DNA of 64,000 bases from positions 1-64,000 of the IMG/VR virus record IMGVR_UViG_3300023179_000044; one strand, written 5' to 3'. Positions 35,378-64,000 of this stretch are shown here, piece after piece. Below the pieces are notes generated by a model that saw nothing but the letters and a program-made list of their open reading frames with translations, made no database searches and was not told where the DNA came from. The stretch comes from a virus. Position numbers and translations under genes: made by a program. Numbering within the stretch: position 1 is the stretch's first letter; the number at the start of each line of letters is the position of its first letter.

Positions 35378-37417
35378 CTAGAAGTCAATTGAAGCAGAAG
35401 CTACGCCACCAAGCATGTCGCGTCCTAATGCATATGTACCATTGACCTTAATTGTCGATGTAACTGCAAGTGCTTCGATACCAACAAAGCCAACGCCCTC
35501 AAAGGTCTCAACGAACATCTTGTAGTCGTTGGTTCCAACTAGGCTGGAGTCACGGATGATACCTAGGTCCAGAGTTCCACCATCTAGGAACAAGAATGTT
35601 CCTTCGGCGAACAAGAACCACTTGAAACTGTCTGGGAACTGGTTAAGAGCACCACTAGAACCAGACTGAACAGTACCTAGCGAGCTAGTAAAGTTGGCAG
35701 CAGCAGTAGTCCAAGCGGTGTTGTCTAATGTTGAAACAACATCAACATTTAGAGATGCTAGATAGCCATCAATTTCTGACTGAGATACAGATAGATTTCC
35801 ATCACCAGGCATGTTCAGAGTCAAGTCTGCAGCCATAGCGTCGTAAACCCATACAGGAATGATAAGTTTCAATCTTGCATTAGGGTTCAAACGGTGACGT
35901 AGTCTATATGCAACTGCAGCACGACGAACGTTAACTAGGAAGTCACGGGCAACACCAATGACGCTGCTAGTGGTTACTGCAGTACAGTTAGAGTTGATAC
36001 CAGCAATTAGGTTCTCTTCTGCTCTACGAGCGTGCTGAACAAGAGCTAGTTCGTTGTGACGAGCAATCAACTCTGGGTAAGCACGAGTCATCAAGTTACC
36101 AAACTGTAGCTGTAGAGTTACAGCGTCGGTAGTTGCAGTCTTCTCGCTAGCTGCAGCGATGGTCATAGTTGCCTTTGAAGAAGGGCTAGGACTTGCTGCT
36201 GCGTCATTACTTGCTGTCCAAACATCAGCCGCTTTTGCATACGTTCCAGCATTTGAAACAGTAGTATCAGTAGTTGAAAGGTTTGCATAGGTAGGTGGAC
36301 TAATGAAACGGACACCACCGCGGTCAACCTGGAAGCGAGGCAAAGCATCGCGAATCGGGCGAACGTTGGTAGAGCCAATCGAGAAGATGTCATACTTTAC
36401 TTCGAATGGAGTAGAAAAACCACCAGCAGCAACAAGTGCTTCAGGGCCTGCTACAGCAGCAATCTTTTTTGCGTTTGACTCTGGATCGGCGTTGAGGATG
36501 CGCTCCTCAGGATATGAAGTGGTGAAGGATGCAACAATGTGCTGCTCTCCATCTCCACCATTTACACGACGAAGTGAGTGGAGGCGCTTCTCCATAGCAA
36601 CTGCTACTTCGCTCATGTCATTGATAGTTGAGCCAGCTGTGTATCCAGGAATGTCAGCTCCAGCGGTAATTGCTACCGGTGCTGGTTCTGAAACCTGAAC
36701 TACAGGCTGACGATCAGCTGGGGCCTCGAAAGGCTGTTCTGCTGCGGCGGTCACTGGGGCCTGCTCTTCCTGTGACTCTTCGGTCACGGTTGGGGTTGAT
36801 TCGGTTTGGGTTTCTTCGGTTGACAGTTCGGATCCATCTTCCTGAGCAATCGATGCGGTTTCAGTTGCTTCATTAGTTGTTGAAAGCTCTGCTTCTGGAG
36901 CAGCAACTTCCTCTACTACTTCTACAACTTCTGATGTGGTGGCTACTTCTTCAGAGTCAGAGCTGTATTCAGACATCTTCTTCTTTTCTTCCTCATCTTC
37001 AACTGGAGTTTCTTCAGCTGGAGTCTCCTCTACAGGAGTTTCCTCTGCTGGAACTTCTTCAGCCGGGACGGGTGCCTCTTCGGTTGGAGTTTCCTCTACA
37101 GGAACATCTTCTTCCATAGGCTTGTTTTCATCCATAGCCATTTCCTCTCCGGTACTTTCATCAGTACCCTTAACACGTGCGGTGGCTTCTGCAGCCTGAG
37201 CCGCTAGCTGTTCAGCTAGAGCCTCTCGGCGAGCTAGCTCACCACGCACAATGTCTAGCGAGTCTGCAAGACTCGTCATAGCATCAACTGTCTCAGGAGT
37301 AGGGTCTTCGCCTTCAACCTTGTCGAACTCGCTCATGATAGAGTTCTGAAGTTCAGCAACTTGTTCGTCGCTCATCTCCGATACTCCATCAAGCTGAGTT
37401 TTGATTTGGTCGTACAC
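35378..37417 (-). CDS. major capsid (hexamer-type) protein with fused N-terminal acidic scaffold
   Basis: GTG 37417 preceded by AGGAGG. Acidic helical and EETP-repeat N-terminal half, then ALVAAGG...RDALP..RGG...FGN...YPE...LDLGIIRDS...NDY..FVETFEG. Confidence 0.9.
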   Translation of the reverse strand: MYDQIKTQLDGVSEMSDEQVAELQNSIMSEFDKVEGEDPTPETVDAMTSLADSLDIVRGELARREALAEQLAAQAAEATARVKGTDESTGEEMAMDENKPMEEDVPVEETPTEEAPVPAEEVPAEETPVEETPAEETPVEDEEEKKKMSEYSSDSEEVATTSEVVEVVEEVAAPEAELSTTNEATETASIAQEDGSELSTEETQTESTPTVTEESQEEQAPVTAAAEQPFEAPADRQPVVQVSEPAPVAITAGADIPGYTAGSTINDMSEVAVAMEKRLHSLRRVNGGDGEQHIVASFTTSYPEERILNADPESNAKKIAAVAGPEALVAAGGFSTPFEVKYDIFSIGSTNVRPIRDALPRFQVDRGGVRFISPPTYANLSTTDTTVSNAGTYAKAADVWTASNDAAASPSPSSKATMTIAAASEKTATTDAVTLQLQFGNLMTRAYPELIARHNELALVQHARRAEENLIAGINSNCTAVTTSSVIGVARDFLVNVRRAAVAYRLRHRLNPNARLKLIIPVWVYDAMAADLTLNMPGDGNLSVSQSEIDGYLASLNVDVVSTLDNTAWTTAAANFTSSLGTVQSGSSGALNQFPDSFKWFLFAEGTFLFLDGGTLDLGIIRDSSLVGTNDYKMFVETFEGVGFVGIEALAVTSTIKVNGTYALGRDMLGGVASASIDF

Positions 37418-37513: not shown

Positions 37514-37530
37514 CTATTAGTAATTTTACC
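37514..37530 (-). promoter_or_regulatory. putative late promoter GGTAAAATTACTAATAG (capsid)
   Basis: 16/17 identical to 51105-51121. Contains a TAAAAT -10 element. Confidence 0.65.
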
Positions 37531-37537: not shown

Positions 37538-40500
37538 TTAGGTAAGGAGTCGGAGGAGCTTGCTCATCTCTGATTGGATTTCTCCTTGAGAATAAACATC
37601 TCCACCTGACATATAGGACTTTAGACTCTTTGTAGCAATGTCTGCATCCTCTTTACCGATCTTTGACTCGACTCTAGTGATCATTCCATCGATAAGATCC
37701 TTAAGTCCAGCTGGTAAATCGCTAAATCTTAGTTTGTCTGCCTCAACACCAAATGGTAGAGGGAGGTTTGATATAACTCGACCTAGTTCCCTAGCAGAGC
37801 TTTTAACATTTTCTAATGCCTGAGGATTTAAAGCTCCAGTATCTAATCTGTCAATAATACCTAAAAGCTCGGCACTAGCAGCAGCTGATTTTTCATAGTT
37901 CCCAGCAAAGTCTAGATTTTGTGCGGCTTCTGCTTGCTTTAAAGCCTCTTGTAGTCCAGCAACACCCAAATCCTGAGTTAATCTTGCAAGAACTTTACGA
38001 TACTTACCTTTAGCATCACGAGGTTGAGTTTTTGGAGTGTATTTAACTCTTCCTTGCTCGTCATACTTATCAGTTACGGTAGTCTTACCAGCTTTAATAT
38101 CTTCTGCTCTTTTAATTTCTTCTTCAGTTTGCTTTTCGGCTTCAGCCTTAGTTTCTTTTAATTCTTTTATATCTTCAGGAGAAATAAGATCAGGTTCAGC
38201 AAAAGTAGAAAGAGAAGCAATAACGGCTCTCATTCTTTCAATATTTTGAGAAGCTTGCATCGAGTGAGCATGCTTCCATTGATCTGGAATTAAATCAGCA
38301 GACTTAAGTTGACGAGCACGCTTCATTATATGGCGACGAACTACAGGACGATCTTCTTCTTTTGCACGACCAAATGCTTTAATGGCATTTTTTAAGTCAT
38401 CAGTATTACGAATTGGATATGATCCGTCTGGTAAAGCATGACCTTTTTTAGCTAAATCAGAACGTTCTTCTTCAGTAAACTTAGCTAATTCTGCAAGAGC
38501 AGATGCAACTATTGCTCTTTCACGTAGGTCTTCAACTTTTGCAGATGCAGCTATACTTTTTGACTTTTTCCATTCATCTGGAATAAGATTATACTTTCCT
38601 AGAGCTCGAGCACGCTTAATAATGTGCTTTTTAGCAGCAGCCACATCTTTTGCTCTACCATGAGCCTGAATTGCATTTTTAAGATCTTCGACATTTCGAA
38701 TAGGGAAAGAACCATCTTTCATGGCTTTTCCTTCTTTTGCAAGGCTATCTCTTTTTTCTCTAGAGATATATCCAAATTGAGTTTCAAATCTTGACATAAG
38801 ATCTGCAGAAGCAGCACTTAATTCATTAAGTTTGGAAGCTCTATCAACCAAACTTGAAACGTGCTGGCTCTTCATAATTGCAAAATAACTTGCACCAGCT
38901 GCAACCAAAGCCATAACTTTACCTGAAGCAAGCATTGCACGAGCAATAGGGAAGCCAGGAACATTCACCTGACATATAGCCACTAGTTCAAGAGAACCGT
39001 TAATTGGACGCCAGTCGCCAGAAGGAGCGGAAGCACGAAGTGCACGAATTTGCATTTCATTTGCATTAGGACGCAAAGAACCAGCTACCCAAATGCCATA
39101 TTCATCTTCTCCTGCGTGGACGTCTGCAATAGCCGATGCCGTATCATCATAATGTTTAGCTGCAGATACTGCATCTGCTTGGAGAGGAGCGTGGCCACCA
39201 GCCAATGTAAGCTGTCCAACTGGAATATCATTTCCATCAGCTGTTCTTACAACACCAGTATGAAAATAGGCATAGTTACTATTTGAACGAGGTGGTCTGG
39301 TTGAACGAGGCATACCGATGTGATTTACATGCCAAGCCGCAATATGCCCATATATTCTTCCGTTTGGCTCAACGGTAATCGGGGTTGGCTTAGTTAAAGC
39401 AGGATTAGTAAACCACTCGGTAGGAGGCGTCATTGGAATTTCTGCATCTAGAAATCCTGATGCTGTTAAAGCTTCAGCAGATACAAAAGAATCTAAAGAC
39501 TCTTCATATATTCCGTCTTCGGGGACCACTCTATCCTCCTGATTTTTAGTGGAATTGCTGTCAATAGAAATAGTGCATTCTTGAAATGCAGGCTTTGCTA
39601 CAATTGTAGCAGCCATTATACGTGCGTGATTTATAGTTAGTTTTTGCTTACCTAACTCATCTTCATTTGCATTTTCTGTTTTATGTTCTTTTGCTTCAAA
39701 TTGATCTAAATCCGCAGATACTCCACGAATAAACCCATTTTTAACTAATCTTTCGGCTTCACGACCATATGGTCCAGTATCAAATACCCCATAAGCATTT
39801 CCAATACCTTCAGGAGTTCTTTCCATGTAATCAATTCGACCAACAACTACAGAACCAGAGTGACCTTCAGCAGTTTTAATTTGCCAAAGAAGCGGGAGTG
39901 GAAGTTCTCTAATAGAAACTGCATCTTTTTTAAATTTTCTTCCGTCTCCAGATTCTATATCTTCTGGAATTAAAAGAGGAATAGAAAACTTTGCACCGTC
40001 AGTTTGAATAGATGCAGTAAGCCCTAAAATTCTTTCTTTTGCTGCATTTGCTGTAGCAATAAGATATGATTTTTCAATAATTTCATTGGTTATTGCATCA
40101 TTTACAGAAAAGAATTTTTTAAAACTATTTCCTCTACTACCTGAATTAAAACGACTTCCAGTGTAAACACCAGTCATTTCTTTATGACGAAGTTGACAAT
40201 ATCCCTTAGCACGGGGGCCAAGATACTTTGAGAGGTGACGAACACAGCGGGTCCAATCTCCAGGAACTCCCCACATAATTTTTGCTCCACCTACACCTCT
40301 AGTCCAGTAGTGCCTTAAATCTTCTGCATTTCCCCTATTTCTATCTAGACCCCCACCAGCAGTAAGAGCTTCATACTCTTTATCTCCACATTTTGCTAGC
40401 TCCTCTAGAGCATACTCAATCTCCATCTGAGGCTGCCAGTTAGATTCATATAATGGATCTTCTTCTTGCATAATTTCTTCATAGGACATAAGAAGATCTT

Positions 40501-40576
40501 CATTAGTGATATCAGTTGGATTTCCTATTTCCATCATGTATTCGTTATCTGCCACGGTTACGATCTCTCTTTGCAT
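37538..40576 (-). CDS. multidomain capsid maturation protease
   Basis: Directly upstream of the capsid gene. Domain 1: SGDGR...PLPL...GH...VVGRID...GVSAD...ATIV..PAF. Second protease-like domain: GRIYGH...HYDD...GIWVAG...SGDWR...VN.PGF. Two DGS(F/Y)PI repeats. The true start may be GTG 40555. Confidence 0.85.
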   Translation of the reverse strand: MQREIVTVADNEYMMEIGNPTDITNEDLLMSYEEIMQEEDPLYESNWQPQMEIEYALEELAKCGDKEYEALTAGGGLDRNRGNAEDLRHYWTRGVGGAKIMWGVPGDWTRCVRHLSKYLGPRAKGYCQLRHKEMTGVYTGSRFNSGSRGNSFKKFFSVNDAITNEIIEKSYLIATANAAKERILGLTASIQTDGAKFSIPLLIPEDIESGDGRKFKKDAVSIRELPLPLLWQIKTAEGHSGSVVVGRIDYMERTPEGIGNAYGVFDTGPYGREAERLVKNGFIRGVSADLDQFEAKEHKTENANEDELGKQKLTINHARIMAATIVAKPAFQECTISIDSNSTKNQEDRVVPEDGIYEESLDSFVSAEALTASGFLDAEIPMTPPTEWFTNPALTKPTPITVEPNGRIYGHIAAWHVNHIGMPRSTRPPRSNSNYAYFHTGVVRTADGNDIPVGQLTLAGGHAPLQADAVSAAKHYDDTASAIADVHAGEDEYGIWVAGSLRPNANEMQIRALRASAPSGDWRPINGSLELVAICQVNVPGFPIARAMLASGKVMALVAAGASYFAIMKSQHVSSLVDRASKLNELSAASADLMSRFETQFGYISREKRDSLAKEGKAMKDGSFPIRNVEDLKNAIQAHGRAKDVAAAKKHIIKRARALGKYNLIPDEWKKSKSIAASAKVEDLRERAIVASALAELAKFTEEERSDLAKKGHALPDGSYPIRNTDDLKNAIKAFGRAKEEDRPVVRRHIMKRARQLKSADLIPDQWKHAHSMQASQNIERMRAVIASLSTFAEPDLISPEDIKELKETKAEAEKQTEEEIKRAEDIKAGKTTVTDKYDEQGRVKYTPKTQPRDAKGKYRKVLARLTQDLGVAGLQEALKQAEAAQNLDFAGNYEKSAAASAELLGIIDRLDTGALNPQALENVKSSARELGRVISNLPLPFGVEADKLRFSDLPAGLKDLIDGMITRVESKIGKEDADIATKSLKSYMSGGDVYSQGEIQSEMSKLLRLLT

Positions 40577-42476
40577 GAGTTGCGGTATAAAAACCTAGGG
40601 CTTCTTTGTGCCTAAGTTGACAATATCCTTTTGCTCTAGGTCCAAGATATTTAGCTAAATGTCTAACACATCTCTTCCAGTCCCCAGGGAGTCCCCATTT
40701 AATCTTTAATGCACCTTCTCCGCGAGTCCAGTATCTGCGTAGCTTTTCTGCATTACCTCGATTTCTATCTAGTCCACCACCGGCAACCATAGTCGAGTAG
40801 TGGTCACCCCAGAAATTAATTAGATGCTGATATGTAGATGACATCGCTGCTTGAGGAGCACCCATTGGTGCTTGTGTCGGAGCTGGCATAGGGGCTGGCA
40901 TAGGTCCAGCTGGTGCCGCTGGAGCCGGATTCTGCTCTTTTGGCGGCTGAGTAGACTCATCTACTTGCTTAAGGATATCTTTAACAAGTTCTGGAGTATC
41001 TAGTTTAACTACAGGTGGAGGAGTAGCTGATTGCAAGTCTCTTAGAATTTGCTCATCTAAAACCCATTTTTGATCTTTACGCTTGTATGTGAGAGGTTGA
41101 TTAGTAGTTGCTGTTTTTGGAACAATTGCAACTACATCCATTACGGCCTGCGGATCATCTGGTGAAACAATAGCAATATATTTTGGCTCTACATCACTAG
41201 TTTTAGGTGTCATATCTTCAGCCGAAGCACCATCTGAAGTTAGAGCAACTTTTCCTCTAAATTTAGTAACTGCATTTGACCAATCAGTAAGCATCTGATC
41301 TAATTCATATTTAGTCATTGGACTAGGACCACTTGATAGTAAAGCTACAGGACCATCTTTTTCAACAACCGGCTGAGCTAAAATTCCTTTTGTATTGATA
41401 GGAGTAATTGGAGCAACAATTTTGTAAGATTTTTCTTCTGTAGAGTCATCTATTTTTTCAAATCCAGAAGCCTGAATGATTCTATCAATCATGCCCATGT
41501 CGAGATCTTCTATCGAGTCAGAAAACATCTGAGATTCGTCTGGATTAATATCATCAATTTGAATCATTTTAAAGGGAGATTCTTGCATGAGAGCTGAAAT
41601 AATAATTGCAGAGTCAGAATCAACTAAAACATGTGTTTTTTCAGTTTTATCATATGGATCATCTAGTCCTGAATCGTAAGTATAAATATCACCATCAATA
41701 TAACCAAGATCATCCCAAGAGCAGTCGTCCCATACATAAACGTGACCATCGATTTCTATTTTGTAAAGACGATCAATCCCAGAGCCATCTAATCTAACTC
41801 TTACTAAAAACTCAGGGCCATATGACGAATCTAAATTATGAGCTTCTTTAAAAGCATTTATATCTGACTCATAGTCATCTTCATAGTAGCTGTCAAGATG
41901 ATCTTCATATTCTGGATCCGTATATCCAGTTGAAGTCATTGCTCGTTTTTCACGCTCTACAATTGCAGAAGCCCAACGCCAAGCAGCGTCACCGCCCCAC
42001 AGTGCCCAGGCGATTCGTCCATTACTAGGGAAGTTATCTTCACCCAAATCCCATCCTTTACCCTTTTTGTCGACTTCATGACGAGGGAAATATTTAGCGA
42101 TATGGCGGACCTTTGCTAGACCGATTTGACCACCTTTAGCAAGTGTACGAGCAGTATTAAGCCCAACTGGAGTTCCGCCTCGGTGGTGCTCTTTGTGCCA
42201 CTTAAGGGCTTTAATTGCTTCGGATTTAACACCATCAGGAATAGTGTACATTCTGCTAGTAGATGCAACTACTGGATTTAGAGTGCTATCTAGTGTTACA
42301 GATGCAAGCTCATAGGCGGTTTCCGGAGTCTCTGAATTAAAAGTCCAACCACTTTTTTGAATATTAGAAAGTGCACCCATCTCAGTGACGATGTTAAGTT
42401 CAGTGTCAATAATTACACTGTAGTCGCCAATAGCAAAAAGCGATAACTTTCCTATACTTCCTAAATATTCAAGCAT
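40545..42476 (-). CDS. modular head-region protein (AWALWGGD module + C-terminal YWTRG module)
   Basis: GGTPVG..TA..LA...YFPRH...PSNGRIAWALWGGD module seen in phage head genes. C-terminus duplicated in the next gene. Confidence 0.75.
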   Translation of the reverse strand: MLEYLGSIGKLSLFAIGDYSVIIDTELNIVTEMGALSNIQKSGWTFNSETPETAYELASVTLDSTLNPVVASTSRMYTIPDGVKSEAIKALKWHKEHHRGGTPVGLNTARTLAKGGQIGLAKVRHIAKYFPRHEVDKKGKGWDLGEDNFPSNGRIAWALWGGDAAWRWASAIVEREKRAMTSTGYTDPEYEDHLDSYYEDDYESDINAFKEAHNLDSSYGPEFLVRVRLDGSGIDRLYKIEIDGHVYVWDDCSWDDLGYIDGDIYTYDSGLDDPYDKTEKTHVLVDSDSAIIISALMQESPFKMIQIDDINPDESQMFSDSIEDLDMGMIDRIIQASGFEKIDDSTEEKSYKIVAPITPINTKGILAQPVVEKDGPVALLSSGPSPMTKYELDQMLTDWSNAVTKFRGKVALTSDGASAEDMTPKTSDVEPKYIAIVSPDDPQAVMDVVAIVPKTATTNQPLTYKRKDQKWVLDEQILRDLQSATPPPVVKLDTPELVKDILKQVDESTQPPKEQNPAPAAPAGPMPAPMPAPTQAPMGAPQAAMSSTYQHLINFWGDHYSTMVAGGGLDRNRGNAEKLRRYWTRGEGALKIKWGLPGDWKRCVRHLAKYLGPRAKGYCQLRHKEALGFYTATHAKRDRNRGR

Positions 42477-42478: not shown

Positions 42479-42880
42479 TTACTCTCTAGCTGGATTACTA
42501 CCGAACAGAGTGTATTCTTCTAACCACTCTTCATTTAAAGTGCCATCAACGTATTTAACAAGAGCAAGTGACTTGTTATTTTCATCAAAAGCTTCGTCAT
42601 TTTTCCAATCAACTACATAATTTACATAGTCATTAAATAAATCATGAACGCGCCAAGAATAGTTTCCTGGAGCTAAAACCCACTGATCTTTTTCTTTATT
42701 GTAGTAAGAAATACCAAAAGCACCATCAGCTAAAATATCTACAACTTTTCTAGTTTTAGGGTCTAAAAATATATAAATTTTTCTACCCAGAGTAGTCTTT
42801 TTAGAGACAGATTCATTTTCTGGTAGTTGAACTTTATAGTCCTCTACTTTTGTATCTTTACTAACTGAACTATTTACCAT
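42479..42880 (-). CDS. hypothetical protein
   Basis: 133-aa ORF in operon context. Confidence 0.7.
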   Translation of the reverse strand: MVNSSVSKDTKVEDYKVQLPENESVSKKTTLGRKIYIFLDPKTRKVVDILADGAFGISYYNKEKDQWVLAPGNYSWRVHDLFNDYVNYVVDWKNDEAFDENNKSLALVKYVDGTLNEEWLEEYTLFGSNPARE

Positions 42881-42898
42881 AATATACTCTATTCTATT

Positions 42899-43261
42899 CT
42901 AATACAGTATTGTACCAGTGTCATTGGTAGGACCAAGTCCCATTGAACGCATTGTCGGAGCATTTCCTTCTATTTTAACTTCCCCTGGCTCATCATAAAG
43001 ACCATATGCAGCAGCGACTACAGCATATGGGTCCTCTAAAGATGCAGATAAGAATGGTCCAGTTGGAGTTACGGCCCAGTCTGGTCCATTCGCCATTGAA
43101 TAAATATAGTTTTCTATATCTTTAGAAATAGCATCGGCATCTTCGGTGTGAGTTATAAAGTAGCCATCTGGAACCCAGACTAGTTTTTCTCCAAGAACAT
43201 ATATATTAAATGGTTCATTGTACTTTTTTCTCCACGGCTGAGCGGCATAAAATTCTTCCAT
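42899..43261 (-). CDS. small acidic protein (candidate partner/immunity protein of the upstream peptidase domain)
   Basis: RBS AGGA, starts 8 nt after the giant gene's stop. VTPTGP motif. Confidence 0.7.
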   Translation of the reverse strand: MEEFYAAQPWRKKYNEPFNIYVLGEKLVWVPDGYFITHTEDADAISKDIENYIYSMANGPDWAVTPTGPFLSASLEDPYAVVAAAYGLYDEPGEVKIEGNAPTMRSMGLGPTNDTGTILY

Positions 43262-51104: not shown

Positions 51105-51121
51105 CTACTAGTAATTTTACC
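51105..51121 (-). promoter_or_regulatory. putative late promoter GGTAAAATTACTAGTAG (giant helicase gene)
   Basis: Near-identical to the motif upstream of the capsid gene. Confidence 0.65.
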
Positions 51122-53210: not shown

Positions 53211-53217
53211 TTTCTTA

Positions 53218-53424: not shown

Positions 53425-53435
53425 ATTATTTTCCT

Positions 53436-53648
53436 TTACCATCTATATCCGTCAGCTAAACTTTTATAGAAATTATCCTCTAATTCTATGTATTTATCTC
53501 CCGTGTAGTCTTCTACTTCAGAAGCAGCACCATTAAGAAGAACATTTTTATAAATAGGCATTTTAGTTTCAGTTATCCACAAATCGGGTGTAACTTCTCC
53601 TAGTAGTAGACCGGACTCATGTTTTTTAGTCATTTTTATTTTAATCAA
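53436..53648 (-). CDS. small acidic protein, candidate immunity protein
   Basis: ATGA overlap with the stop codon of the giant gene. Confidence 0.65.
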   Translation of the reverse strand: MIKIKMTKKHESGLLLGEVTPDLWITETKMPIYKNVLLNGAASEVEDYTGDKYIELEDNFYKSLADGYRW

Positions 53649-56600
53649 AATAGCCCTCCTCCAAAGGATCTAGGTTTAGAATATGGTTTTTTACTAGAGA
53701 ACTCCCATATTATACCCTTACTAGTCAACAAGTCAATCATTTCAACTGAAGGCATTTCATAAAATACAACTTTTTCAATGTCATCTAGTGTCACACCGCC
53801 ATGAATCTGGGCCTCAATTGAACCAAATTTAGCAAAATTTTCACTTTCAAAGAAGTTTTTCCCGGTAGCTTCTCTATAAATAGCAGCCATCTGAGTCAAA
53901 TAACTCAATTTAAATTCTGGATCAGTCAATGGAGTAGTTTCATCAAAGTTATTCAAAGAGTCTCTATCAGAAATGGTGGTTCTTTTCTTTACTTCTGGCT
54001 TCAGCACTACCTGGGCAGGCTCGGATCCTCCATAAATTTTTAAAGCATCTTCTGGTGGTGGTAGTGTAGCTGAAGCAAGCGATCCATATACTGGACGCCC
54101 TTCCAGTGGAGAGTCTCCCTCATAGCCAAAAGCCATGCTTTCATATAAAACACGTAAAGCACGATACTCCTCATTAGAGACTCCAGCCATAGAGCGTTTA
54201 GTCTCGTGTACTGTCTTTATTCGTCCTTCTTCTAGAACTTTTTCTAGAGCACGAGATGGCATAATAACTGATACAGCACCAGATTCAGAAAATTCTTTTA
54301 GATCTTTATTTGTAATTTCTACAGATTGTTCTGGATCAACCGTAACATCATAAACCTGACTATTTACTTCATCATCCGCATAGTCTGGAGTTGTTATGGC
54401 AAACTGATCTAGGTCTTCTTTACTTATTCTTGGACGTTGTCTAGTTAAACCTCGTTCTAAAAGTGCATAAGCTATAGTTGAACCATCAAAATTATTAGTT
54501 TTAGATGTCAATGCTTCCATTATGTCTCTGTAAAGTGGATTACTATGCGCTGCTATTAAAGCTTCAGTATATTTTTGATCGTTATCCATTTTGTCTTTAT
54601 AAAGATTTTTTATTCTTAACAATTCTTTTTCTTCATCTGTGTCGGGGCTATCTTTTTTAAATTGTATAGCTGACCTAATATATTCGTAAGTTTCTCTACC
54701 TTCTGGAGTTCTGTCAGTGTCCCAGGGGAGAGACAAATCCCTACCAAGTTCAGTTGCAATTTCTTTATAAGCTTTGTCGCTAGCATTGTGTTTTGCATCA
54801 TCAAGATTAGAAATAACCGAGCTTAGTTCTTGCCTAGCGTCGTCCGATAGTCGTGTTCCAGTTATATCTGTTCTATTTTTATTTTCTTGGTTCGGGTTTT
54901 TATTTTTATTTTTATATTCACTAGAAAACATGATAGGAATAGATATTCCAGCTTTATCTAACTCTTTTTGTATTCTTGCTTTTTCGGCTTCCATATCTGC
55001 TTTAGAACTATTTCTATCATCGAGAATAATAGTTTCTATTTCATCACTAGAAATTCCACCGTGAATCTGAGCTTCGGTGTAGCTGGGATGGTAAGCACCA
55101 TTTCCGTAATCAAGGTTATTTTCAACTTGCGGTAAATAGCCAATAATACCTGCAGCATATAAAGAATCAGGATCAATTTTTTCTCCAAGTGGGATAGCTT
55201 GGAAAGCCCTATCAAACGAATCGTTCATCGTGGCTGTAGATCTATCTCTGACTGATTTTTTAAGAATAAGCTTTACATCTCCGTAGCCAAAAGTTGGACT
55301 AGAGTCTATATCATTGAATCGATTACTAGTTCCAAATAGTCTTTTTGGAGCATCATCAGTTGGATAAACTAAATAGCCATAAATAGGTCTATTTTTTGGA
55401 TCTAAATCAATTGGAAGACCCATTAAAGCACGTTCGACCACCGTTCTTTTAGAATTGTCAAACAATCCATTAGAAAATTGAGTCTCAAACTGAGTTTTAA
55501 TTCTTTTATCTTCTAAAATTTTAGCAAAAGTTTTTTCATCTACCGCGACTACAATTTCGGCGTTATCTAATTTATCAGCAATTAAACTTAAATTACTGTC
55601 TATGAGATCAATACCCGAAACAATCTTAGGAAGATTATTTTCAGATACTTCATTTTTCATCTCTTTATACATCTCTAAAAGTAGCATGGTATTTTCATGC
55701 ATTGCATAATTATTAAGTTGCTCTTTTATTGCATCAAATTCAATAGGAGAAAGTTTATCTTTATATATTTTATTAAATTCTTTTATATCAAAATATATAA
55801 ATCTATCTTTATTTCTTTTAATCCAATCTTGAGCAAAATCTATGGCTTCTTGTGAATGACCATATGAAGTACGGTCAAGATAATCAACAGTCAAAACAGT
55901 GGACATTACTTGACCCGTAATATCTTCAGATTTATTTGGTATAGGGTCCCCATCAGAGTCTGGCTCAGTCAATTTCTTTATAAACTTTTTATCTGGATCT
56001 ATGTATTCTTTAATAGAATCCATTGCAGAATAGTTTTTAAGTAAAGATATAATTTCTTCTTGAGTAGATGGAATAGCTACTTTTGGTTTTTGTTGTTCTT
56101 CAAGTTCATCAAGGCTTGGCCTTTCGCGAGTGACCTGAACTACTTCTACAGGAATAGAAATTCCATAATTTTTCATAAGATCTTCAATATTTTTAGCAAC
56201 CTCTAGAAGAGCCTCTTTATCATTATCACTGTAAGCAGGTATAACAAATTTTTCAATATCATCTAAAGAAACACCACCATGAATCTGAGCCTCAAGATAG
56301 TTTGATCCAAAATCTCCAAGAGTACTTGGCGGTATTTCTAACACTCCAGATTTTAAAACAGAGTCTCTGTCAACTTTAGTCAAATCTGATGCCACGAACT
56401 CGGCTGAAAGACTATCCTTAGCTGTAAATCTTGTTCTATTTTTTATTGATGATTTAAGTACTACCCTAACATTTCCGTATTGATATAAATTAGGACTTTC
56501 TAGTCTATAGTCCGTTGAGAATGGATTTAGATTACGATACAATTCTGGAGTACTCTCTAGTCCTAGATATCCATAAATAGGTCTAAGACTGTCATCAATG

Positions 56601-59600
56601 TCTATAGGAACACCGTTTACACTGAATTCTGAAATTGCTCTTTTAATTGGATCATAAAGGCCCCTACTTTTAGCAGTTTCAAATTGAGATTTTATTCTTC
56701 CATCTTTAAATAAATTTTCAATAAACTTTTCATCGATAGCAATAGTAACAGAAGCATTTTTTATAGCATTAGATAAATCTTCAGCTGCATCCATCATTTT
56801 TCTTACAGATTTAGCATCTTCACTTTGTCCAGGAAAAGCTTTTTCATATTCAAGAAACATCTCATCAACGGCTTTTTTATTTACATAATCTTGATAAGTT
56901 GTTATTGCATTATAAATAGCATCTTTTTTCCACATAAAGTCATTAGAGGTTCTTTCATCAATACTTTCAGCGGCAGCAAATAGTTTTTCTTTTAATTTTT
57001 TTCTATTTATATATAAAAATTTTTCTTTATTTTTTTCAAACCACTCTTTAGCAAAATCAAATACCGTCTGATCTGGCTCTTTATATCCTTCATTTACTTT
57101 TAATGCTTCATCTCTGTCTTTTAATCTTTTTAATATGCTATATGGGTCATAATAAAATGTTGGATCATCTGGATCACTAGCATCATCATATGCTTTTTTA
57201 TCGGTAAAAATAATTGACTTATCCGACAGATATTTTTCTAGCTCGTCCTCTATGGAATAAGGAATGGCAGAAGCATTAATTTCATTAGAAGTAAAGTCTT
57301 CTTTTTTAACTGGTTCTTTAGGACGTTTATATATTTTGTCATACTCTTCAATATCGGCATTAATTTTGTCTGATAATTCTTTTATAGTATTAGAATCAAT
57401 TTTTTGATCTTCTCTATTAATGAGCTCATCTAAAAGATCCTCGGTAGGCTTGCTAAGTCTAGCATCCTTAAAATATTTGTATACATCATCACGTTCTTGT
57501 GGGCTAGCAAAGGTGACGTCAGTTACACCGTCCGACTTATACTGCTCTTCAGGCCACTCAGGTAAGAATTGCTTTTTTCCATACTTTACCCTGATTCTTA
57601 GGGTTCCGTCAGCATCTTCAAAAACTTCAGAAACTGTAAACTTGGCAGCTATAGGGAGAATAACTTCTTTTTCTCTGTCATAAACAGTTCCGTCTGGCTC
57701 GATAGGGGAGCCTGTAGCACCTTTTTCTGTTTTAATTTCAAAAATAACCGCTGAATTAGTATTTGAATCTTTATTATTTTGATCTAGAATTGCAAAGCCC
57801 TCGGCCACTTCAGGGTCTAGTGAGGTCGAAGTAAAAATATCACTAGATATAACTTCATCCCCTGGCTTTAGCTGCATCAACTGAGCACGTAATTCAGAGT
57901 CTCTTCGGGCTATAGTTCCTCTATAGAGTTTTGTTCCTTCTGGAATTTCTTCAGATTCAGTTAGCTTTTTTAAATTAGAAACTAATTTATTAACACTCTC
58001 GGAAGTATCGGAATCAAACTCTTCACCTTTTATAAAATCTTTTATTAATAAATACTGACCTTTTTGATAACCAGTGATTGCTTCTTTTTCTTCATTTGTT
58101 CTATCTGGAGTTGGAAGTTGATCTATGCCACCCATATCAGGAGATTCGGGCTGGATCTGCCATATAGGATCGCCATCAGGAGGGCCAAAACCAGCTGGAA
58201 TACGAGCAAATGATGTAAAGAATATAGGATTTAATACAGTATTTTCATCGTATCGACCACTCGACTCTGAGATTTTAATTCTAATAGGAGTTGGTCGGCC
58301 ACCGTTATCTCTTGCAGCAATAAGTTTTACTACGTCATCGCTATTATTTAAAGAATATTTTTCAGTATTTGGATTATAAAGTATTTCAATTGGCTCCCTA
58401 AATCCATTATCCTTAATATCTTTAGCGACTTCACTAGCTTTAGTTTTATTTTCCCCAGTGACAAGACCGAAATCAGCATTATCTACTTTAGAAAGCACAT
58501 CTCCTGGACGTACATATCCAACAGTGCCGAGGTTTCCTCCATTAAGAATTCCAAATGGAGCACGTTTTGTTCCTGGTTTTAAATCTATATTTAAGTTAGG
58601 ATCTTCTTGCTTAGAGTACTCGGATGTTTTTTGTCTTACTGCATCTAAGTATGGCTCATTAAGTGTTACTTTTCTGTATAAACCATATTTATGTAAAAGA
58701 CTTTGTAAAGTCTCTAACCCCTCATCAGAGTTACCATATTCATTAATTAAATTAATAGCTTGAGTGTCATATATTTCACCTCTAAGCGAAGCTTTTATAT
58801 CACGAAGTTTTTGTCTACCCCAAATACTTAGATTTGATAATTTTTCTGAAGAATTTTCTTTTTTAACTGTTGTATTTGTATTTTTATATTTTAGTTTGAT
58901 TGTTAAATTACTATTAGAATCCTTTTCTACACCGATAACTTCTAGCTGCGCTCCAATTGGTAAAACCACCTCTTTTTCTAAATCATACATATCCCCACTG
59001 GCTCCCACTACAGCACCAGTTGCACCATTTTCTGTTGTAATATCAAATACTATTCTTTTTGTTGGAGCAACTCTTTGATCACCAAGAGCAGCGAAATCTA
59101 TAGCAACACTTTTATCTCTTGTAGTAGAAGTAAATGTATTATCTGACGATACAATATCGCCAGGTTGTAGTTGGTTAAATTGAGCGTACTTATCACTAGA
59201 AAATACGGCAAAAGTTCCTCTATAGAGTTTTGTTCCTTCTGGAAGCTCTTCTGAAGTAGTTACTTTTTTTAGATGCGGTATTGCTTTATCAAATTTTGCT
59301 TTTTGTTCTTCAGTAATAGTCCCATTAGTTGGATCTGCCATATATTTTGCTAAACGATAATATGAAGGACTTTGATAAAGTTCTATACTTTCATTTTCTT
59401 CATCAGTTCTAGGTGGTATTGGTAAATCAAATTCGTCATTAGCTGTTTCTGGAGTTTTCTCTTCTGATTCTGGATATTTATTTAAAATAAACTCGCGACG
59501 AGCTTTTAGTTTTTCTTTAAGTTCTTTATTATCAGCTGGGTCAGAAATAAACTTATCAACAAGTTCATCTATTTTTTCTGGAGTAATAGCGCGAAGCTTT

Positions 59601-62600
59601 TCGACACTTTTTCTTTCAGCCTCGGGACTCATATTAGAAAAAAGTTGACCAGTAGTATTTTTCTTGTCTTTAAAAGTCTCTAATTCTCCTACTTCATTAC
59701 CAAAAGCCGATCCCTTACGCTCGCCTCTGGCACGATATAGAAGAGAACCTCCGGAGTCTATACGAACTGGATTTCCATCTTTGTCATAACTTAAATTGTC
59801 GTATCCAGTACCAACAACGTCCCAGTTGCCTAGCCATGCATCTATTGCAAACCCGTCGAATGCCGGATCGTTGGGGTCCACCCCATTATTTATTCTTTCT
59901 GCTACTGAAGTTAAAGGAGTGGTTTTCCAATCAGTGTAAGTTACTTGTTTACTACGCATTAGGCCTTTTTTAACTTCTAATGCGTCGATTCCGGCTTCTT
60001 TATATAATGCAGAAGCGAGTGCTTCATTATCTCCACGGTTTTTATCTTGGATCTTTACATAGAAAATATTTCCAGTATTTGGATCTTGATATTTTCCACC
60101 AGGATTAGAACCAAGAGGTCCAGAAATTTGTTTAAAGTTAGTAAAATCTAACTCGGGGGTTTCAGATTTTTTAAGCTCTTCACTTAACTCGGGTTTTAAC
60201 TTATTTTCTGCAGATTCTATAATAGGTTCTATTTTTTCTACATTTTTAAGACGAGAGTCATTTGGATCGTGGCCACGGCTGACAAAGAAAGGTTTACCTA
60301 TTAGCTCTTGCATAGAAGAGAGGACCTTAAGCGATCTGTCTACTTCATCTCCAGCTTCTGGATTATCAAAGTATTTTTCAGCTCCTCCTCCAATATAATG
60401 AAGTGATTCACCCTTTAAACGCCATTTTTGATTACCATTTTTATCTTTAAATGATTCAAATAATCTATAAAACCTATCAGAACGAGGTGTCTCCGAGCCC
60501 CAGTCGCGTTCCCATGCACCTTCACCATAAAGTTCGTCATATTTAGCTGGAAGAGCACCTTTTGTTAAACCATTTTCTTCATAAAAAGATGCCCAGTCGC
60601 GGCCATCACCAAAAGGACTGCTATCTAGTGCATAGTAATCGAACTGGCCTAGTGGTTTAAGATGTCTAAATGGGCTTCCTCCACCACTTCTATCAAACTT
60701 CTCATTTGGGCCAACCTTTAGATCCTTTAAATTAAACCACGGAGCATTTTCTGGGTTTGGAATCTCTAAATCACCAAGTCTAGTAACTCTACCTGGAATT
60801 GACGTAACTTCGGGGCTTATTACAGCACCAATTTCATCAGAAATACGGCTAAAACCAAGTAGACCAGTTATTTCATCGGGTCTAGCTTTAATTTCATAAC
60901 GACCAGTATTTTTCCCTTTATCTCCTTTTCCACGTTCAACGTTATAATCAAAAGCCATATACCTATCAAGTGAAGCGTAACCAGCGGCGGCATCGGCTTC
61001 TGTATCTTTATGGTGAATATTATTTCTATAAAAAGAAATAAATCCTCCAGGCTTAACTCCTAAAAATTTTTCAGCATAAAGTTGATTAACTTTTTTGGCT
61101 AAAGGTGAAATATCTTTTGGATCGCTATACTTAGTCATTAAATCTGTGGCAATATGATTACTTAGATAATCCCAGAAAAGATTTTTATCGGTAAGTTCGC
61201 CATATACCGTTTTTAAAAGTTCAGGGTTTTCTTCTTTAATCTGATCGAAGAGACTCCTATACTGAGCACCAACAACTTCTTCAATATCTTTTGGACTTCT
61301 AATTAAAGGGAAGCGACCCTTTTTTCTAAGATTGTTTGCGGCAACAGAACGAATATTCTTAAGCGCGTCATCCCCAGAAACTTCATCAACCAGCTGGTCT
61401 GGAGAGACCGGCTTTATAAAATTAAGCCCTTCGCTTGCTAAGTGTAAACGTATACGTTCATTCTGTTCTTCAGCAATAGCTGCCATTTTTGGAGATAACT
61501 CGGTAACAAATGGTCCTAGTTCTGGTCTTTCGGATTTTTGTTTTACAAGTTTATCTGCAATATCAGCTGGAGATTCTTTTGTAACTTCTGGAGATGGTGG
61601 CGAAGTTTCTTTTGGTGGTTCTCCTTCTGGTGCTTTAGGCGGATTTCCTTTAATACCAACTTCACCTTCTACTTCACGCTTAGGAGCAGGCTTAGGATTA
61701 GCGGAAGTAGCGCCTAGAGTCTGTCTAGGAACACCAACATAGTCATTATATTCATTTGCAAGTTTAAGAACATCCTCATGATCAAGATCAACAACGACAA
61801 CATTTAAATCAATTGGCTTATCCCCCATCTCCTGCGCAGCCAAAGCACCAGCCCAACGGTGGTGACCATCGATGACATACCCGTCACGGCTTACATATAG
61901 AACTGCTTGATCAAACTTTGCTCTACCTTCTGGAGTTAGGAATGCCTGAGCAATACCTCCAACATTTCCCATATCCATTTCTGACTGAACTGGTGTAAGT
62001 TGATCTGGTGTTTTTACATCTCTAGTGTGTTTGATATTAAGTTCATCAAGAATTTTTTCAAATTGTTTTTGATCAGCATCAGTACCAAGCTGCGGCATTA
62101 ATCCACGTTCAGCACCTAAATTGTTATTTGTATAGTTTTCTTTACCATACATCTTCATATTCGTAACATCTACACCATTGGTTCGATATTTACGAGTTAG
62201 ACTTTGCATTTCTTCACTACTTAAAGGACTTCCATTTTTAGATCTTAAAAATGAAAGTAATGAATTAGCTCTTTCCTCATTTAAAAGCCCAGAACTTATA
62301 GCTCTGCGGAGTCTGTTGTATTGCCTCGGCTCTAATTTCTTTAGTTCATCATCTAGTTCTCTAGCTAGTTCAGCTGCTCCTCCTATAGCATTCTCATCTG
62401 CACCAATATACTTTCTATCTGCAGCTGCAATTTTTAGAGCTTCTACCCAAGTATCTTTGTCTACTTCAATAAATCCGCCATCATAAAGAACTTCATACGC
62501 TTCCTGAGGATCAGTTATATCTGTTCTTACCTCTGATGGGTCAATTTCGTTTAGATCCCAGAAACCGCCCTCGTGTCTAGTTGGAGCTGTGGGGCTAGAC

Positions 62601-64000
62601 TCATCTTTAAATTCAGGCTTAAACTCTACTTTTCTTCCATAGCCGTCAAGTACTCGATTATTTTGAATATCACGAATACGTCGATTTGCCTTAGTTTTAT
62701 CAACGTGGGTGAGTTTATCAGCTGGAATTATATTTCCACTAGAGTCAACGTACCACTCTAAAGGCTTACCATCAGTATCGGTTTCACCCTCTACATCAGG
62801 TATCTCATATATAGGCTCTTTTTTCCTCGGCTCCGGAGGTGGTTTTATTGGCGGTGACTCGGATGGGTTTCCTTTGATACCAACTTCACCAGCAACTTCA
62901 CGGTCAGGAACTTCTTTTTCTTCAAATTTTTGGCTAAGGTCAGCCTTTTTAACACCAGCAAAATCAGTAAACTCGTTGGCTAAACGGATACCTTCGCCGT
63001 GATCCATATCAACTACAACAACATTTAGTTCAATGTCTTCCCCAAGCTCGTCCTGAGCAATAAGTGCAGCAGCCCAGCGGTGGTGACCATCAATAACATA
63101 CCCATCTCTAGTTACATAAATGGGGAGTTTTCTAAGTTTTTCTCTTGACTCCGGATTTAAGAAACCCTGAGCAATTCCACCAACCTTACCCATGTCCATT
63201 TCTGACTGAATAGGTGTCAACTGGTCAGGAGTCATCAGTCCATCGGTTATTTTAATACCATTGTCAGCGCAATATTTTCTAAATAACTTAGCGTCGTTGT
63301 CATCTCCAAGTTGTGGCATCAAACCACGAGGAGCACCTAGGTTGTTCTGGGTATAGTTAGTCGAATTACCCATCTGAAGATTTGTAAGGTCGACTCCGAG
63401 ATTACGGAACTTCCTATGTACTTGCCTCATTTCGTCTTTAGTTAAGGCTTCGCCGTTCTTACCGTTAACTAGGTCTATTAGGGCTCTGGCTTTTTCTTCA
63501 TTTAAGTCGGATGGCTTCACAGCACGAAGAATTTTTGCTTTTTGTTTTGTTGGAAGTTTATCTAAAGTATCTAGAACTTCCTGAGCAAGTGCAGATTTTC
63601 CGATCGCATTCTTGTCTTTTTTTATGTACTTGGAATCCGCTGCTGCAATTCTAAAAGCGTTCCAAGCAATTTCTGGAGCAGCTTGACAAACTTCTCCGTC
63701 ATACATAAGCTCATACAGTTCTTGAGCATCTTTTACGTCTCTAATTACATCGGCTTCAGTAATTTCATTTTTATCAATGAAGCCCCTCTCGTGTCTTACT
63801 TCTTGAACTCTAGGATCAGCTGATTCACGATTTTCAAATTTAAATTTTACTTCTCGACCATTTCCGTCAAGAATTCTATTATTTTCTATATCTCGAATAC
63901 GAAGATTTTCTGGAATTCTGCGAGATGGGTCTAGTTTATCTTCACTAATAACCATTCCATCTTCATCAACCCACCAAGCTAGAGATGGATTTTTAGAAAT
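53645..64000 (-). CDS. >3,450-aa polyvalent protein (ParB-like x2-3, ADP-ribosyltransferase x2-3, HipA/PI-kinase-like, DUF3626-like x3); N-terminus outside the window
   Basis: The frame is open to base 64000 (ISKNPSLAWWVDEDG-M...), and the listed Met is internal to a repeat (compare LEWYVDSSGNII). DGHHRW x2; LYRG/STT or STS/EKE x2; GSN..YVK..NE..NWD..N..IDSG; EAQIHGG x3. Confidence 0.9.
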   Translation of the reverse strand: MSKNPSLAWWVDEDGMVISEDKLDPSRRIPENLRIRDIENNRILDGNGREVKFKFENRESADPRVQEVRHERGFIDKNEITEADVIRDVKDAQELYELMYDGEVCQAAPEIAWNAFRIAAADSKYIKKDKNAIGKSALAQEVLDTLDKLPTKQKAKILRAVKPSDLNEEKARALIDLVNGKNGEALTKDEMRQVHRKFRNLGVDLTNLQMGNSTNYTQNNLGAPRGLMPQLGDDNDAKLFRKYCADNGIKITDGLMTPDQLTPIQSEMDMGKVGGIAQGFLNPESREKLRKLPIYVTRDGYVIDGHHRWAAALIAQDELGEDIELNVVVVDMDHGEGIRLANEFTDFAGVKKADLSQKFEEKEVPDREVAGEVGIKGNPSESPPIKPPPEPRKKEPIYEIPDVEGETDTDGKPLEWYVDSSGNIIPADKLTHVDKTKANRRIRDIQNNRVLDGYGRKVEFKPEFKDESSPTAPTRHEGGFWDLNEIDPSEVRTDITDPQEAYEVLYDGGFIEVDKDTWVEALKIAAADRKYIGADENAIGGAAELARELDDELKKLEPRQYNRLRRAISSGLLNEERANSLLSFLRSKNGSPLSSEEMQSLTRKYRTNGVDVTNMKMYGKENYTNNNLGAERGLMPQLGTDADQKQFEKILDELNIKHTRDVKTPDQLTPVQSEMDMGNVGGIAQAFLTPEGRAKFDQAVLYVSRDGYVIDGHHRWAGALAAQEMGDKPIDLNVVVVDLDHEDVLKLANEYNDYVGVPRQTLGATSANPKPAPKREVEGEVGIKGNPPKAPEGEPPKETSPPSPEVTKESPADIADKLVKQKSERPELGPFVTELSPKMAAIAEEQNERIRLHLASEGLNFIKPVSPDQLVDEVSGDDALKNIRSVAANNLRKKGRFPLIRSPKDIEEVVGAQYRSLFDQIKEENPELLKTVYGELTDKNLFWDYLSNHIATDLMTKYSDPKDISPLAKKVNQLYAEKFLGVKPGGFISFYRNNIHHKDTEADAAAGYASLDRYMAFDYNVERGKGDKGKNTGRYEIKARPDEITGLLGFSRISDEIGAVISPEVTSIPGRVTRLGDLEIPNPENAPWFNLKDLKVGPNEKFDRSGGGSPFRHLKPLGQFDYYALDSSPFGDGRDWASFYEENGLTKGALPAKYDELYGEGAWERDWGSETPRSDRFYRLFESFKDKNGNQKWRLKGESLHYIGGGAEKYFDNPEAGDEVDRSLKVLSSMQELIGKPFFVSRGHDPNDSRLKNVEKIEPIIESAENKLKPELSEELKKSETPELDFTNFKQISGPLGSNPGGKYQDPNTGNIFYVKIQDKNRGDNEALASALYKEAGIDALEVKKGLMRSKQVTYTDWKTTPLTSVAERINNGVDPNDPAFDGFAIDAWLGNWDVVGTGYDNLSYDKDGNPVRIDSGGSLLYRARGERKGSAFGNEVGELETFKDKKNTTGQLFSNMSPEAERKSVEKLRAITPEKIDELVDKFISDPADNKELKEKLKARREFILNKYPESEEKTPETANDEFDLPIPPRTDEENESIELYQSPSYYRLAKYMADPTNGTITEEQKAKFDKAIPHLKKVTTSEELPEGTKLYRGTFAVFSSDKYAQFNQLQPGDIVSSDNTFTSTTRDKSVAIDFAALGDQRVAPTKRIVFDITTENGATGAVVGASGDMYDLEKEVVLPIGAQLEVIGVEKDSNSNLTIKLKYKNTNTTVKKENSSEKLSNLSIWGRQKLRDIKASLRGEIYDTQAINLINEYGNSDEGLETLQSLLHKYGLYRKVTLNEPYLDAVRQKTSEYSKQEDPNLNIDLKPGTKRAPFGILNGGNLGTVGYVRPGDVLSKVDNADFGLVTGENKTKASEVAKDIKDNGFREPIEILYNPNTEKYSLNNSDDVVKLIAARDNGGRPTPIRIKISESSGRYDENTVLNPIFFTSFARIPAGFGPPDGDPIWQIQPESPDMGGIDQLPTPDRTNEEKEAITGYQKGQYLLIKDFIKGEEFDSDTSESVNKLVSNLKKLTESEEIPEGTKLYRGTIARRDSELRAQLMQLKPGDEVISSDIFTSTSLDPEVAEGFAILDQNNKDSNTNSAVIFEIKTEKGATGSPIEPDGTVYDREKEVILPIAAKFTVSEVFEDADGTLRIRVKYGKKQFLPEWPEEQYKSDGVTDVTFASPQERDDVYKYFKDARLSKPTEDLLDELINREDQKIDSNTIKELSDKINADIEEYDKIYKRPKEPVKKEDFTSNEINASAIPYSIEDELEKYLSDKSIIFTDKKAYDDASDPDDPTFYYDPYSILKRLKDRDEALKVNEGYKEPDQTVFDFAKEWFEKNKEKFLYINRKKLKEKLFAAAESIDERTSNDFMWKKDAIYNAITTYQDYVNKKAVDEMFLEYEKAFPGQSEDAKSVRKMMDAAEDLSNAIKNASVTIAIDEKFIENLFKDGRIKSQFETAKSRGLYDPIKRAISEFSVNGVPIDIDDSLRPIYGYLGLESTPELYRNLNPFSTDYRLESPNLYQYGNVRVVLKSSIKNRTRFTAKDSLSAEFVASDLTKVDRDSVLKSGVLEIPPSTLGDFGSNYLEAQIHGGVSLDDIEKFVIPAYSDNDKEALLEVAKNIEDLMKNYGISIPVEVVQVTRERPSLDELEEQQKPKVAIPSTQEEIISLLKNYSAMDSIKEYIDPDKKFIKKLTEPDSDGDPIPNKSEDITGQVMSTVLTVDYLDRTSYGHSQEAIDFAQDWIKRNKDRFIYFDIKEFNKIYKDKLSPIEFDAIKEQLNNYAMHENTMLLLEMYKEMKNEVSENNLPKIVSGIDLIDSNLSLIADKLDNAEIVVAVDEKTFAKILEDKRIKTQFETQFSNGLFDNSKRTVVERALMGLPIDLDPKNRPIYGYLVYPTDDAPKRLFGTSNRFNDIDSSPTFGYGDVKLILKKSVRDRSTATMNDSFDRAFQAIPLGEKIDPDSLYAAGIIGYLPQVENNLDYGNGAYHPSYTEAQIHGGISSDEIETIILDDRNSSKADMEAEKARIQKELDKAGISIPIMFSSEYKNKNKNPNQENKNRTDITGTRLSDDARQELSSVISNLDDAKHNASDKAYKEIATELGRDLSLPWDTDRTPEGRETYEYIRSAIQFKKDSPDTDEEKELLRIKNLYKDKMDNDQKYTEALIAAHSNPLYRDIMEALTSKTNNFDGSTIAYALLERGLTRQRPRISKEDLDQFAITTPDYADDEVNSQVYDVTVDPEQSVEITNKDLKEFSESGAVSVIMPSRALEKVLEEGRIKTVHETKRSMAGVSNEEYRALRVLYESMAFGYEGDSPLEGRPVYGSLASATLPPPEDALKIYGGSEPAQVVLKPEVKKRTTISDRDSLNNFDETTPLTDPEFKLSYLTQMAAIYREATGKNFFESENFAKFGSIEAQIHGGVTLDDIEKVVFYEMPSVEMIDLLTSKGIIWEFSSKKPYSKPRSFGGGLF
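57914..59244. repeat. exact 32-nt direct repeat at 57914-57945 and 59213-59244
   Basis: AGTTCCTCTATAGAGTTTTGTTCCTTCTGGAA in both ART domains (encodes PEGTKLYRGT). Confidence 0.9.

Follow-up and report, generated by a model that had tools for sequence, protein, structure and literature searches.

The stretch analysed here, termed the window throughout, comprises bases 1-64000 of the 103,878-bp IMG/VR virus record IMGVR_UViG_3300023179_000044, a record estimated to be 61% complete and derived from an uncultured freshwater actinobacterial phage. It encodes two giant proteins, A and B, which start with one and the same N-terminal module. The core of this module recurs in the protease-scaffold protein of the virus, and the giants are therefore probably loaded into the capsid and injected. 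That they are polyvalent proteins placed in the procapsid by the module is the reading we favour, by a modest degree. The features on which it draws are listed below in window coordinates.

53645-64000, minus strand: giant A, an open reading frame (ORF) of 3,612 amino acids with ParB-like, ADP-ribosyltransferase (ART) and DUF3626 regions; the coordinates give the part within the window, and the start lies outside it, at genome position 64483.
43270-51051, minus strand: giant B, 2,593 amino acids, with the N-terminal module, a UvrD-type helicase and then about 1,400 C-terminal residues without a family match.
50452-51051, minus strand: N-terminal module of giant B, residues 1-200, a beta-barrel followed by helices; core Q-L-R-D-R-H-G-Q-W at residues 26-34, encoded at 50950-50976.
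47518-49590, minus strand: UvrD/REP-type superfamily 1 (SF1) helicase region of giant B, residues 488-1178 (PF00580, 4.4e-15; PF13361, 1.1e-10; phrog_1967, 1e-58; PDB helicases).
37538-40576, minus strand: p1012, predicted prohead protease (approximately residues 200-600) followed by a long helical scaffold-like region (phrog_18402, 'head maturation protease', 6.3e-61; phrog_859, 3.2e-93).
37541-38110, minus strand: terminal scaffold-like helical domain of p1012, residues 823-1012; core T-Q-P-R-D-A-K-G-K-Y at residues 850-859, encoded at 38000-38029.

The giants and the head genes are linked by a short peptide, Q-x-R-D-x-x-G-x-(W/Y/F). A first-pass annotation of the window had noted such a peptide in giant B and the protease, and this claim was borne out in a stronger form: the pattern Q.RD..G.[WYF] was observed three times against 0.016 expected, and none of 1000 shuffles reached three. 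The shorter R-D-x-x-G-x-(W/Y/F) also occurs exactly three times in the six reading frames of the 103 kb, with all copies in this gene block. The peptide is located at residue 26 of giant B, residue 46 of giant A and residue 851 of p1012. The copy in giant A (Q-I-R-D-A-K-G-R-W, residues 46-54) had been invisible to the earlier reader because residue 46 is encoded outside the window, the N-terminal module lying just past the edge. Giant A had consequently been described as linked by position only; its start does lie outside, but the protein carries the peptide as well. Its N-terminal module is recognised by the module hidden Markov model (HMM) at 1.1e-31, and the two giants are alike over about 300 N-terminal amino acids (24% identity).

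An alignment of 33 cargo N-termini revealed a conserved module of about 200 amino acids, beyond which the proteins diverge completely. The only invariant columns across the 33 sequences were Q26, R28, D29 and G32. A conserved hydrophobic-hydrophobic-Ala-Ala stretch precedes the core in the cargo module, and it showed no sign of a cleavage site. Residues 30-200 of giant B were confidently modelled by AlphaFold as a small beta-barrel with helices. Fold searches with the module returned weak SH3/Tudor-like barrels only and nothing at E<=1e-3, its N-terminal 120 amino acids had no Pfam match at E<=10, and an ESM Atlas look-up gave sub-threshold matches only. A tblastn search of the phage collection with the 125-amino-acid module found no match, though the HMM detects the module in three of those phages.

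A module profile of 123 positions, searched against 1.84 billion proteins (as cluster representatives), matched 663 representatives at E<=1e-3 and 332 at E<=1e-10. Among the best 150 of the 663 matches, the module began between residues 1 and 27, except in a dozen where it began at about 74-190; the proteins were 94-5,432 amino acids long. The cargo domains behind it included UvrD helicase, ADP-ribosyltransferases (up to four copies), DUF3626, Zeta toxin, GNAT, RNase_T and NUDIX. The first-pass annotation had proposed looking for its motifs on different cargo domains in related genomes; when this was done, the peptide proved to be conserved on varied cargos in hundreds of relatives.

The genomic position of the module is similarly restricted. 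Full-module matches in 80 portal-anchored IMG/VR loci numbered 70, all on the portal strand. Of these, 67 were located downstream of the portal, 65 at a distance of no more than 3 kb, and the module was missing from a single locus whose downstream sequence was long enough. For DSL-LC01, A3Wally and Atuin the genomes are complete (129-194 kb); in these, every module match falls within the portal-to-capsid interval, and the simple pattern marks the N-termini of the post-portal genes as well as their protease or scaffold genes. The simple pattern gave 70 matches in the 80 portal-anchored relatives, always on the head-gene strand, and these occurred in four contexts: at the N-terminus, as G-A-N-K-G-F-W-R-x-Q-P-R-D-x-x-G-x-W-I-E-M-G or G-N-S-x-A-A-R-x-A-R-x-x-L-Q-P-R-D-K-K-G-R-W; after an N-terminal extension of about 190-250 amino acids; within the N-terminal part of the polyprotein; and at the start of the terminal scaffold domain, as Y-T-P-x-T-Q-P-R-D-x-x-G-K-F-R-x-V-L-A-R-L.

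This last context connects the cargo with the scaffold. The motif was found in about 74 of 80 capsid-anchored loci, always about 162 amino acids before the end of the ORF preceding the capsid gene. Because Q-P-R-D-x-x-G is kept in all 37 protease-scaffold homologues, the only residues that never vary in the cargo module are just as fixed where the scaffold domain begins. The final 183 amino acids, corresponding to the terminal scaffold domain, are encoded by a gene of their own in DSL-LC01. The protein itself, p1012, is assigned by family profile and by fold as a predicted prohead protease of the assemblin/S78/gp21 fold. Its Pfam S78 match scored 19.1 bits, below the cut-off of 21, and its top fold matches were herpesvirus assemblins and T4 gp21 at a probability of 0.97-1.0, with an E value of only about 3e-3. 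The model places about 470 mostly helical, scaffold-like residues after the protease. A co-complex prediction of p1012 residues 190-1012 with giant B residues 1-125, both entered as alignments, gave no answer (score 0.00), which is evidence neither way.

Other parts of this polyprotein also attract attention. Residues ~380-565 of p1012 (window ~38880-39430, minus strand) form its most conserved stretch, with dozens of invariant residues in the 37 homologues; they are modelled at a very low AlphaFold confidence (predicted local distance difference test, pLDDT, 27-50), whereas the less conserved N-terminal beta domain folds well. A second conserved segment, A-L-P-D-G-S-Y-P-I-R-N-x-x-D-L-K-N-A-I-Q-A-Y-G-R-A-K, lies among the helices that separate the protease from the scaffold domain (window ~38400-38500, minus strand). 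The gene preceding p1012 encodes the following protein.

40545-42476, minus strand: p643, equal to the N-terminal part of what relatives encode as a fused polyprotein; the interior motif copy (relatives: approximately residues 300-390) is lost.

The two genes overlap by 32 nucleotides and contain a duplicated segment of about 93 amino acids (p643 541-633 versus p1012 49-141, 63% identity; window 37538-42476, minus strand), while relatives have a single fused polyprotein of 1,442-1,547 amino acids. Either a real rearrangement or an artefact of assembly or frameshifting could account for this split with duplication.

The enzymatic content of the giants was then compared with the earlier description of both as multi-enzyme proteins. 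This description holds for giant A, in which at least two distinct effector-type domains are present on one polypeptide. PHROGs matches were obtained to phrog_2859, to a ParB-like family (7.3e-12), to phrog_8314 and to an Alt-like ART family, together with DUF3626 in Pfam (3.5e-18) and a Vis-type ART in the PDB (7.3e-5). It is weak for giant B, where only the UvrD-type helicase is recognisable. No methyltransferase family was found in giant B, nor any peptidase family in Pfam at E<=1; a single HExxH at residue 2329 is a pattern only. Neither giant gave a Pfam match to a metallopeptidase, ArdC or MuF even at E<=1, the ParB-like match coming through PHROGs only. For MuF (PF04233) in particular, the whole giants had no match at E<=0.01 and their N-terminal 120 amino acids none at E<=10.

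Both giants are also depleted in cysteine, with two residues each (0.06% in giant A, 0.08% in giant B). Cysteine makes up 0% of the tape measure protein, 0.08% of one tail protein and 0.14% of the capsid protein; for most enzymes encoded beyond the structural block, the figure is 1-2%. In absolute terms, the tape measure has no cysteine in 1,234 amino acids and the 1,199-amino-acid tail protein has one (window 17309-20908 and 26168-29869, minus strand). The giants match the tape measure and capsid proteins in their shortage of cysteine, which plausibly supports their being virion cargo.

Taken as a mechanism, the proposal is that both giants are incorporated into the procapsid and later enter the host along with the ejected DNA. 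The module, and particularly its core, would dock the cargo on the same partner as the scaffold during procapsid assembly, the candidate partners being the interior of the capsid protein, the core of the protease-scaffold and the portal. The protease may then trim the giants. Following ejection, the ART and ParB-like parts of giant A and the helicase of giant B would act on host proteins and DNA, in takeover or counter-defence. The core itself may be a docking element, a protease site or both. A bolder version, which we hold only tentatively and regard as doubtful, takes the core as a portable capsid-address code of scaffold and cargo in a large actinophage clade, binding one site in the procapsid interior.

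The packaging and injection of these proteins had already been proposed in the first-pass annotation, and the proposal gained from the peptide in both giants, the variety of cargos, the adjacency to the portal, the core in the scaffold and the low cysteine content; the cleavage code on which it had partly relied did not hold. Several points weigh against it. The likeness of the cargo module to the scaffold site is confined to a core of 7-9 residues, and the module HMM finds the interior polyprotein copies weakly and the scaffold copy not at all. The absence of the interior copy from p643 implies that some copies are dispensable. No module match was obtained in Forza and GMA2, which are more distant relatives. 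As a folded domain rather than a short peptide, the module might serve in catalysis or binding and have nothing to do with packaging. Proteins of 2,600-3,600 amino acids would need to be unfolded for passage through a siphovirus tail, and a literature search found no virion proteomics, cleavage or injection data for this phage group.

Alternatively, the Q-x-R-D-x-x-G core might be mainly a recognition or cleavage site of the predicted prohead protease and not an address. This would be a variant of the packaging proposal, compatible with it, and we consider it unlikely as the principal role. A propeptide of about 25 amino acids would come off each cargo and the scaffold domain would be freed from the protease, comparable to the cleaved T4 targeting peptide. 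The assemblin/gp21 fold of the protease and the placement of the copies suit such a role: those of the cargos stand some 25-50 residues after the start of the protein, others are found in the polyprotein ahead of the protease, and the scaffold copy comes about 24-30 residues past the point where the DSL-LC01 scaffold becomes a separate gene. However, the core sits in a confident fold in the cargo model (pLDDT 75-92), which is unusual for a cleavage site, and in most copies a proline follows the glutamine. Proline is a poor P1' residue for serine proteases.

Two other explanations were weighed. The giants might be late-expressed intracellular enzymes that are never packaged, with the module an ordinary domain (for example, of Tudor/SH3-like binding) and the position in the head operon a matter of timing. 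The folded barrel with helices and its weak Tudor/SH3-like fold matches agree with this, and the N-terminal likeness of the giants over about 300 amino acids fits paralogy. We nevertheless judge it improbable, as it leaves unexplained the recurrence of the sole invariant module residues in the scaffold region, the near-obligatory adjacency to the portal, the strictly N-terminal placement on unrelated cargos and the virion-like cysteine depletion. The other explanation makes the ART-bearing protein a 'Trojan horse' toxin against eukaryotic grazers that eat infected cells, a role that has been proposed in print for freshwater-phage ART genes, predicted actinophages being among the phages concerned (PMC6802176). 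The ART regions do match exotoxin-type families. The gene context, however, fits this role poorly: the ART is one region of a 3,612-amino-acid protein with a head-module header, adjoining the portal; the same header stands on helicases, nucleases and acetyltransferases without a link to eukaryotes; and family scans of the window proteins found no translocation (B) component. We regard a grazer toxin as very improbable, and loading into the procapsid through the N-terminal module as the better account.

Two further signals had been advanced for the link between giant B and the head genes, the first of which is a nucleotide element located upstream of both giant B and the capsid gene.

51105-51121, minus strand: conserved upstream element GGTAAAATTACTAGTAG, in the 96-nucleotide spacer before giant B.
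37514-37530, minus strand: conserved upstream element GGTAAAATTACTAATAG, in the 78-nucleotide spacer before the capsid gene.

The two copies form the 17-mer GGTAAAATTACTA[G/A]TAG. Its 13-nucleotide core has only two exact copies in the 103 kb, both in these spacers. The identical 13-mer stands at the same place before the capsid gene in five relatives (L089, L090, L091, L105 and L127), and a similar element precedes a cargo gene in L046. Close variants, GGTAAAATTA[A/T]TA, were also observed shortly upstream of other late ORFs (L107:12659, L129:9826 and L030:12038). The variants in related contigs suggest a family-wide control element of late genes. The element contains TAAAAT, yet does not fit a sigma-70 consensus scan, which was itself uninformative (38 sites against 47.8 in shuffles). 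The earlier claim of a promoter common to giant B and the capsid gene is thus upheld for the presence and conservation of the 17-mer, while its promoter function is an inference only. Co-regulation of the two genes through the element is a reasonable inference from the sequence, and in the proposed mechanism this would be a late co-regulation.

The second signal, an assemblin-like cleavage code (V/L/I/M)-x-A-(S/A/G) at the domain boundaries of head proteins, was rejected. Occurrences of [VLIM]-x-A-[SAG] were at chance level in both giants, with nine in giant B (expected, 9.2) and 11 in giant A (expected, 9.8). Enrichment was observed in p1012 only (18 against 6.5 expected), and the copies conserved in the 37 homologues all lie inside the protease core, with none at domain boundaries.

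The neighbourhood of the giants was also characterised. The window has a G+C content of about 36-40%. By capsid protein, the nearest named relative is DSL-LC01, a metagenome-assembled freshwater Actinomycetia phage (63% identity), followed by the A3Wally-type 190-kb Microbacterium phages (about 51%), Arthrobacter phage Atuin (45%) and Gordonia phages such as Forza and GMA2 (43%). The actinophage origin guessed earlier was right, since the closest capsid proteins belong to actinobacterial phages. A megablast of the region against the phage collection gave no match. The following features complete the gene block.

35378-37459, minus strand: major capsid protein, 693 amino acids (phrog_777, 1.2e-77), 63% identical to the DSL-LC01 capsid protein.
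42479-43261, minus strand: p120 and p133, small proteins without a family match.
51148-51963, minus strand: p271, with short segments common to both giants.
51963-53267, minus strand: p434, containing DUF5824 (4.5e-7).
53218-53648, minus strand: two small ORFs of 70 and 74 amino acids without a family match, which fill the apparent gap after giant A.

Nearly all genes in question lie on the minus strand, in the order large terminase, portal (phrog_776, 1.2e-105), ferritin-like gene, giant A, the two small ORFs, p434, p271, giant B, p120, p133, p643, p1012, capsid, probable decoration protein, major tail protein, adaptor, tape measure and more tail genes. Both giants thus lie between the portal and the protease and capsid genes, a layout that is equal in DSL-LC01, A3Wally and Atuin. 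The reported arrangement of two giant minus-strand ORFs upstream of the capsid gene (43270-51051, and 53645 to past 64000) was confirmed. The position from which the first-pass annotation began its region, 36420, falls inside the capsid gene, which spans 35378-37459.

Some neighbouring genes carry features of their own. Similarity was detected between p271 and residues 1340-1382 of giant B (40% identity, 3e-7) and residues 2476-2514 of giant A (0.011), and p271 may be a free-standing copy of a cargo sub-domain. The ferritin-like gene between the portal and giant A lies just past the window (L003 1487-1942, minus strand; genome 64487-64942) and matches PF00210 at 5.4e-17. It carries the PHROG label 'DNA binding protein' and so is possibly of the Dps type; it also recalls the ferritin-like cargo of HK97-fold encapsulins. 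The Q-x-R-D core is absent from it. On the other side of the capsid gene, p379, the protein that follows it, and p446, the major tail protein (window 32799-35295, minus strand), have a segment of about 60 amino acids in common (32% identity, E 6.5e-5). It is at this segment that p379 matches virion and tail protein families, and it may be a surface-display domain common to the two proteins.

For the entry of polyvalent proteins without MuF into the capsid, a module whose core is common to the scaffold offers a concrete, mutable candidate signal. The module is carried by cultivable phages, Microbacterium phage A3Wally and Arthrobacter phage Atuin, in which the targeting hypothesis is directly testable. 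If the hypothesis is true, the module matches amount to a list of over 600 clusters whose members are probably effectors injected by actinophages. It would then be possible to read the freshwater-phage ADP-ribosyltransferases as weapons against the bacterial host rather than as grazer toxins, and a handle would be available for loading foreign proteins into actinophage capsids. Should the address code also be true, the module, or even the core with its flanks, would suffice for any protein to be loaded and injected, and hundreds of unknown injected anti-defence or takeover enzymes could be listed with the module as a search handle.

Among the known systems, several share part of this organisation. 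In the encapsulins, cargo-loading peptides offer a parallel in that a short conserved peptide could address diverse enzymes into an HK97-fold shell, and the present block contains a ferritin-like gene. Those peptides are usually C-terminal and different in sequence. The P1 Dar system includes DarB, a giant protein with a helicase; DarB is packaged in the head and shields the incoming DNA. Giant B differs in having an SF1 helicase of UvrD/REP type and not the SF2 helicase-adenine methyltransferase dyad, and no homologues of Hdf, DarA or DdrA were found. In MuF-domain fusions (SPP1 gp7, Mu gpF and MuF-toxin proteins), a conserved N-terminal domain, which in the case of MuF serves head incorporation, is likewise followed by variable C-terminal effectors and encoded adjoining the portal; PF04233 is undetected in either giant, and the domain here is a small barrel with helices.

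The capsid targeting sequence of T4 (IPI-III and Alt) resembles the module as an N-terminal signal on unrelated internal head proteins, one of them an ADP-ribosyltransferase, and in its link to a prohead protease of the assemblin/gp21 fold. The T4 targeting peptide is about 10-19 amino acids long and is cleaved at (L/I)-x-E. Here, in contrast, there is a folded module of 110-200 amino acids with a different core, Q-x-R-D-x-x-G, and no sequence relation. The closest described class is that of the polyvalent proteins, whose genes adjoin those of the portal and terminase and for which packaging and injection have been predicted (Iyer, Burroughs, Anand, de Souza and Aravind, 2017; PMC5512222). The giants resemble them in their very large size, in the several conflict-type domains strung together (ParB-like, ADP-ribosyltransferase, helicase) and in their location, with the portal and large terminase upstream and the protease and capsid downstream. 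They differ in that no MuF, Pfam LPD or metallopeptidase hub domain was detected, and in carrying a non-Pfam N-terminal module with a core that recurs in the scaffold region. The novelty claimed earlier for the system was therefore too strong, as packaged polyvalent proteins are an already described class (PMC5512222). The N-terminal module, with its core common to the scaffold, is probably an undescribed tag within a known strategy.

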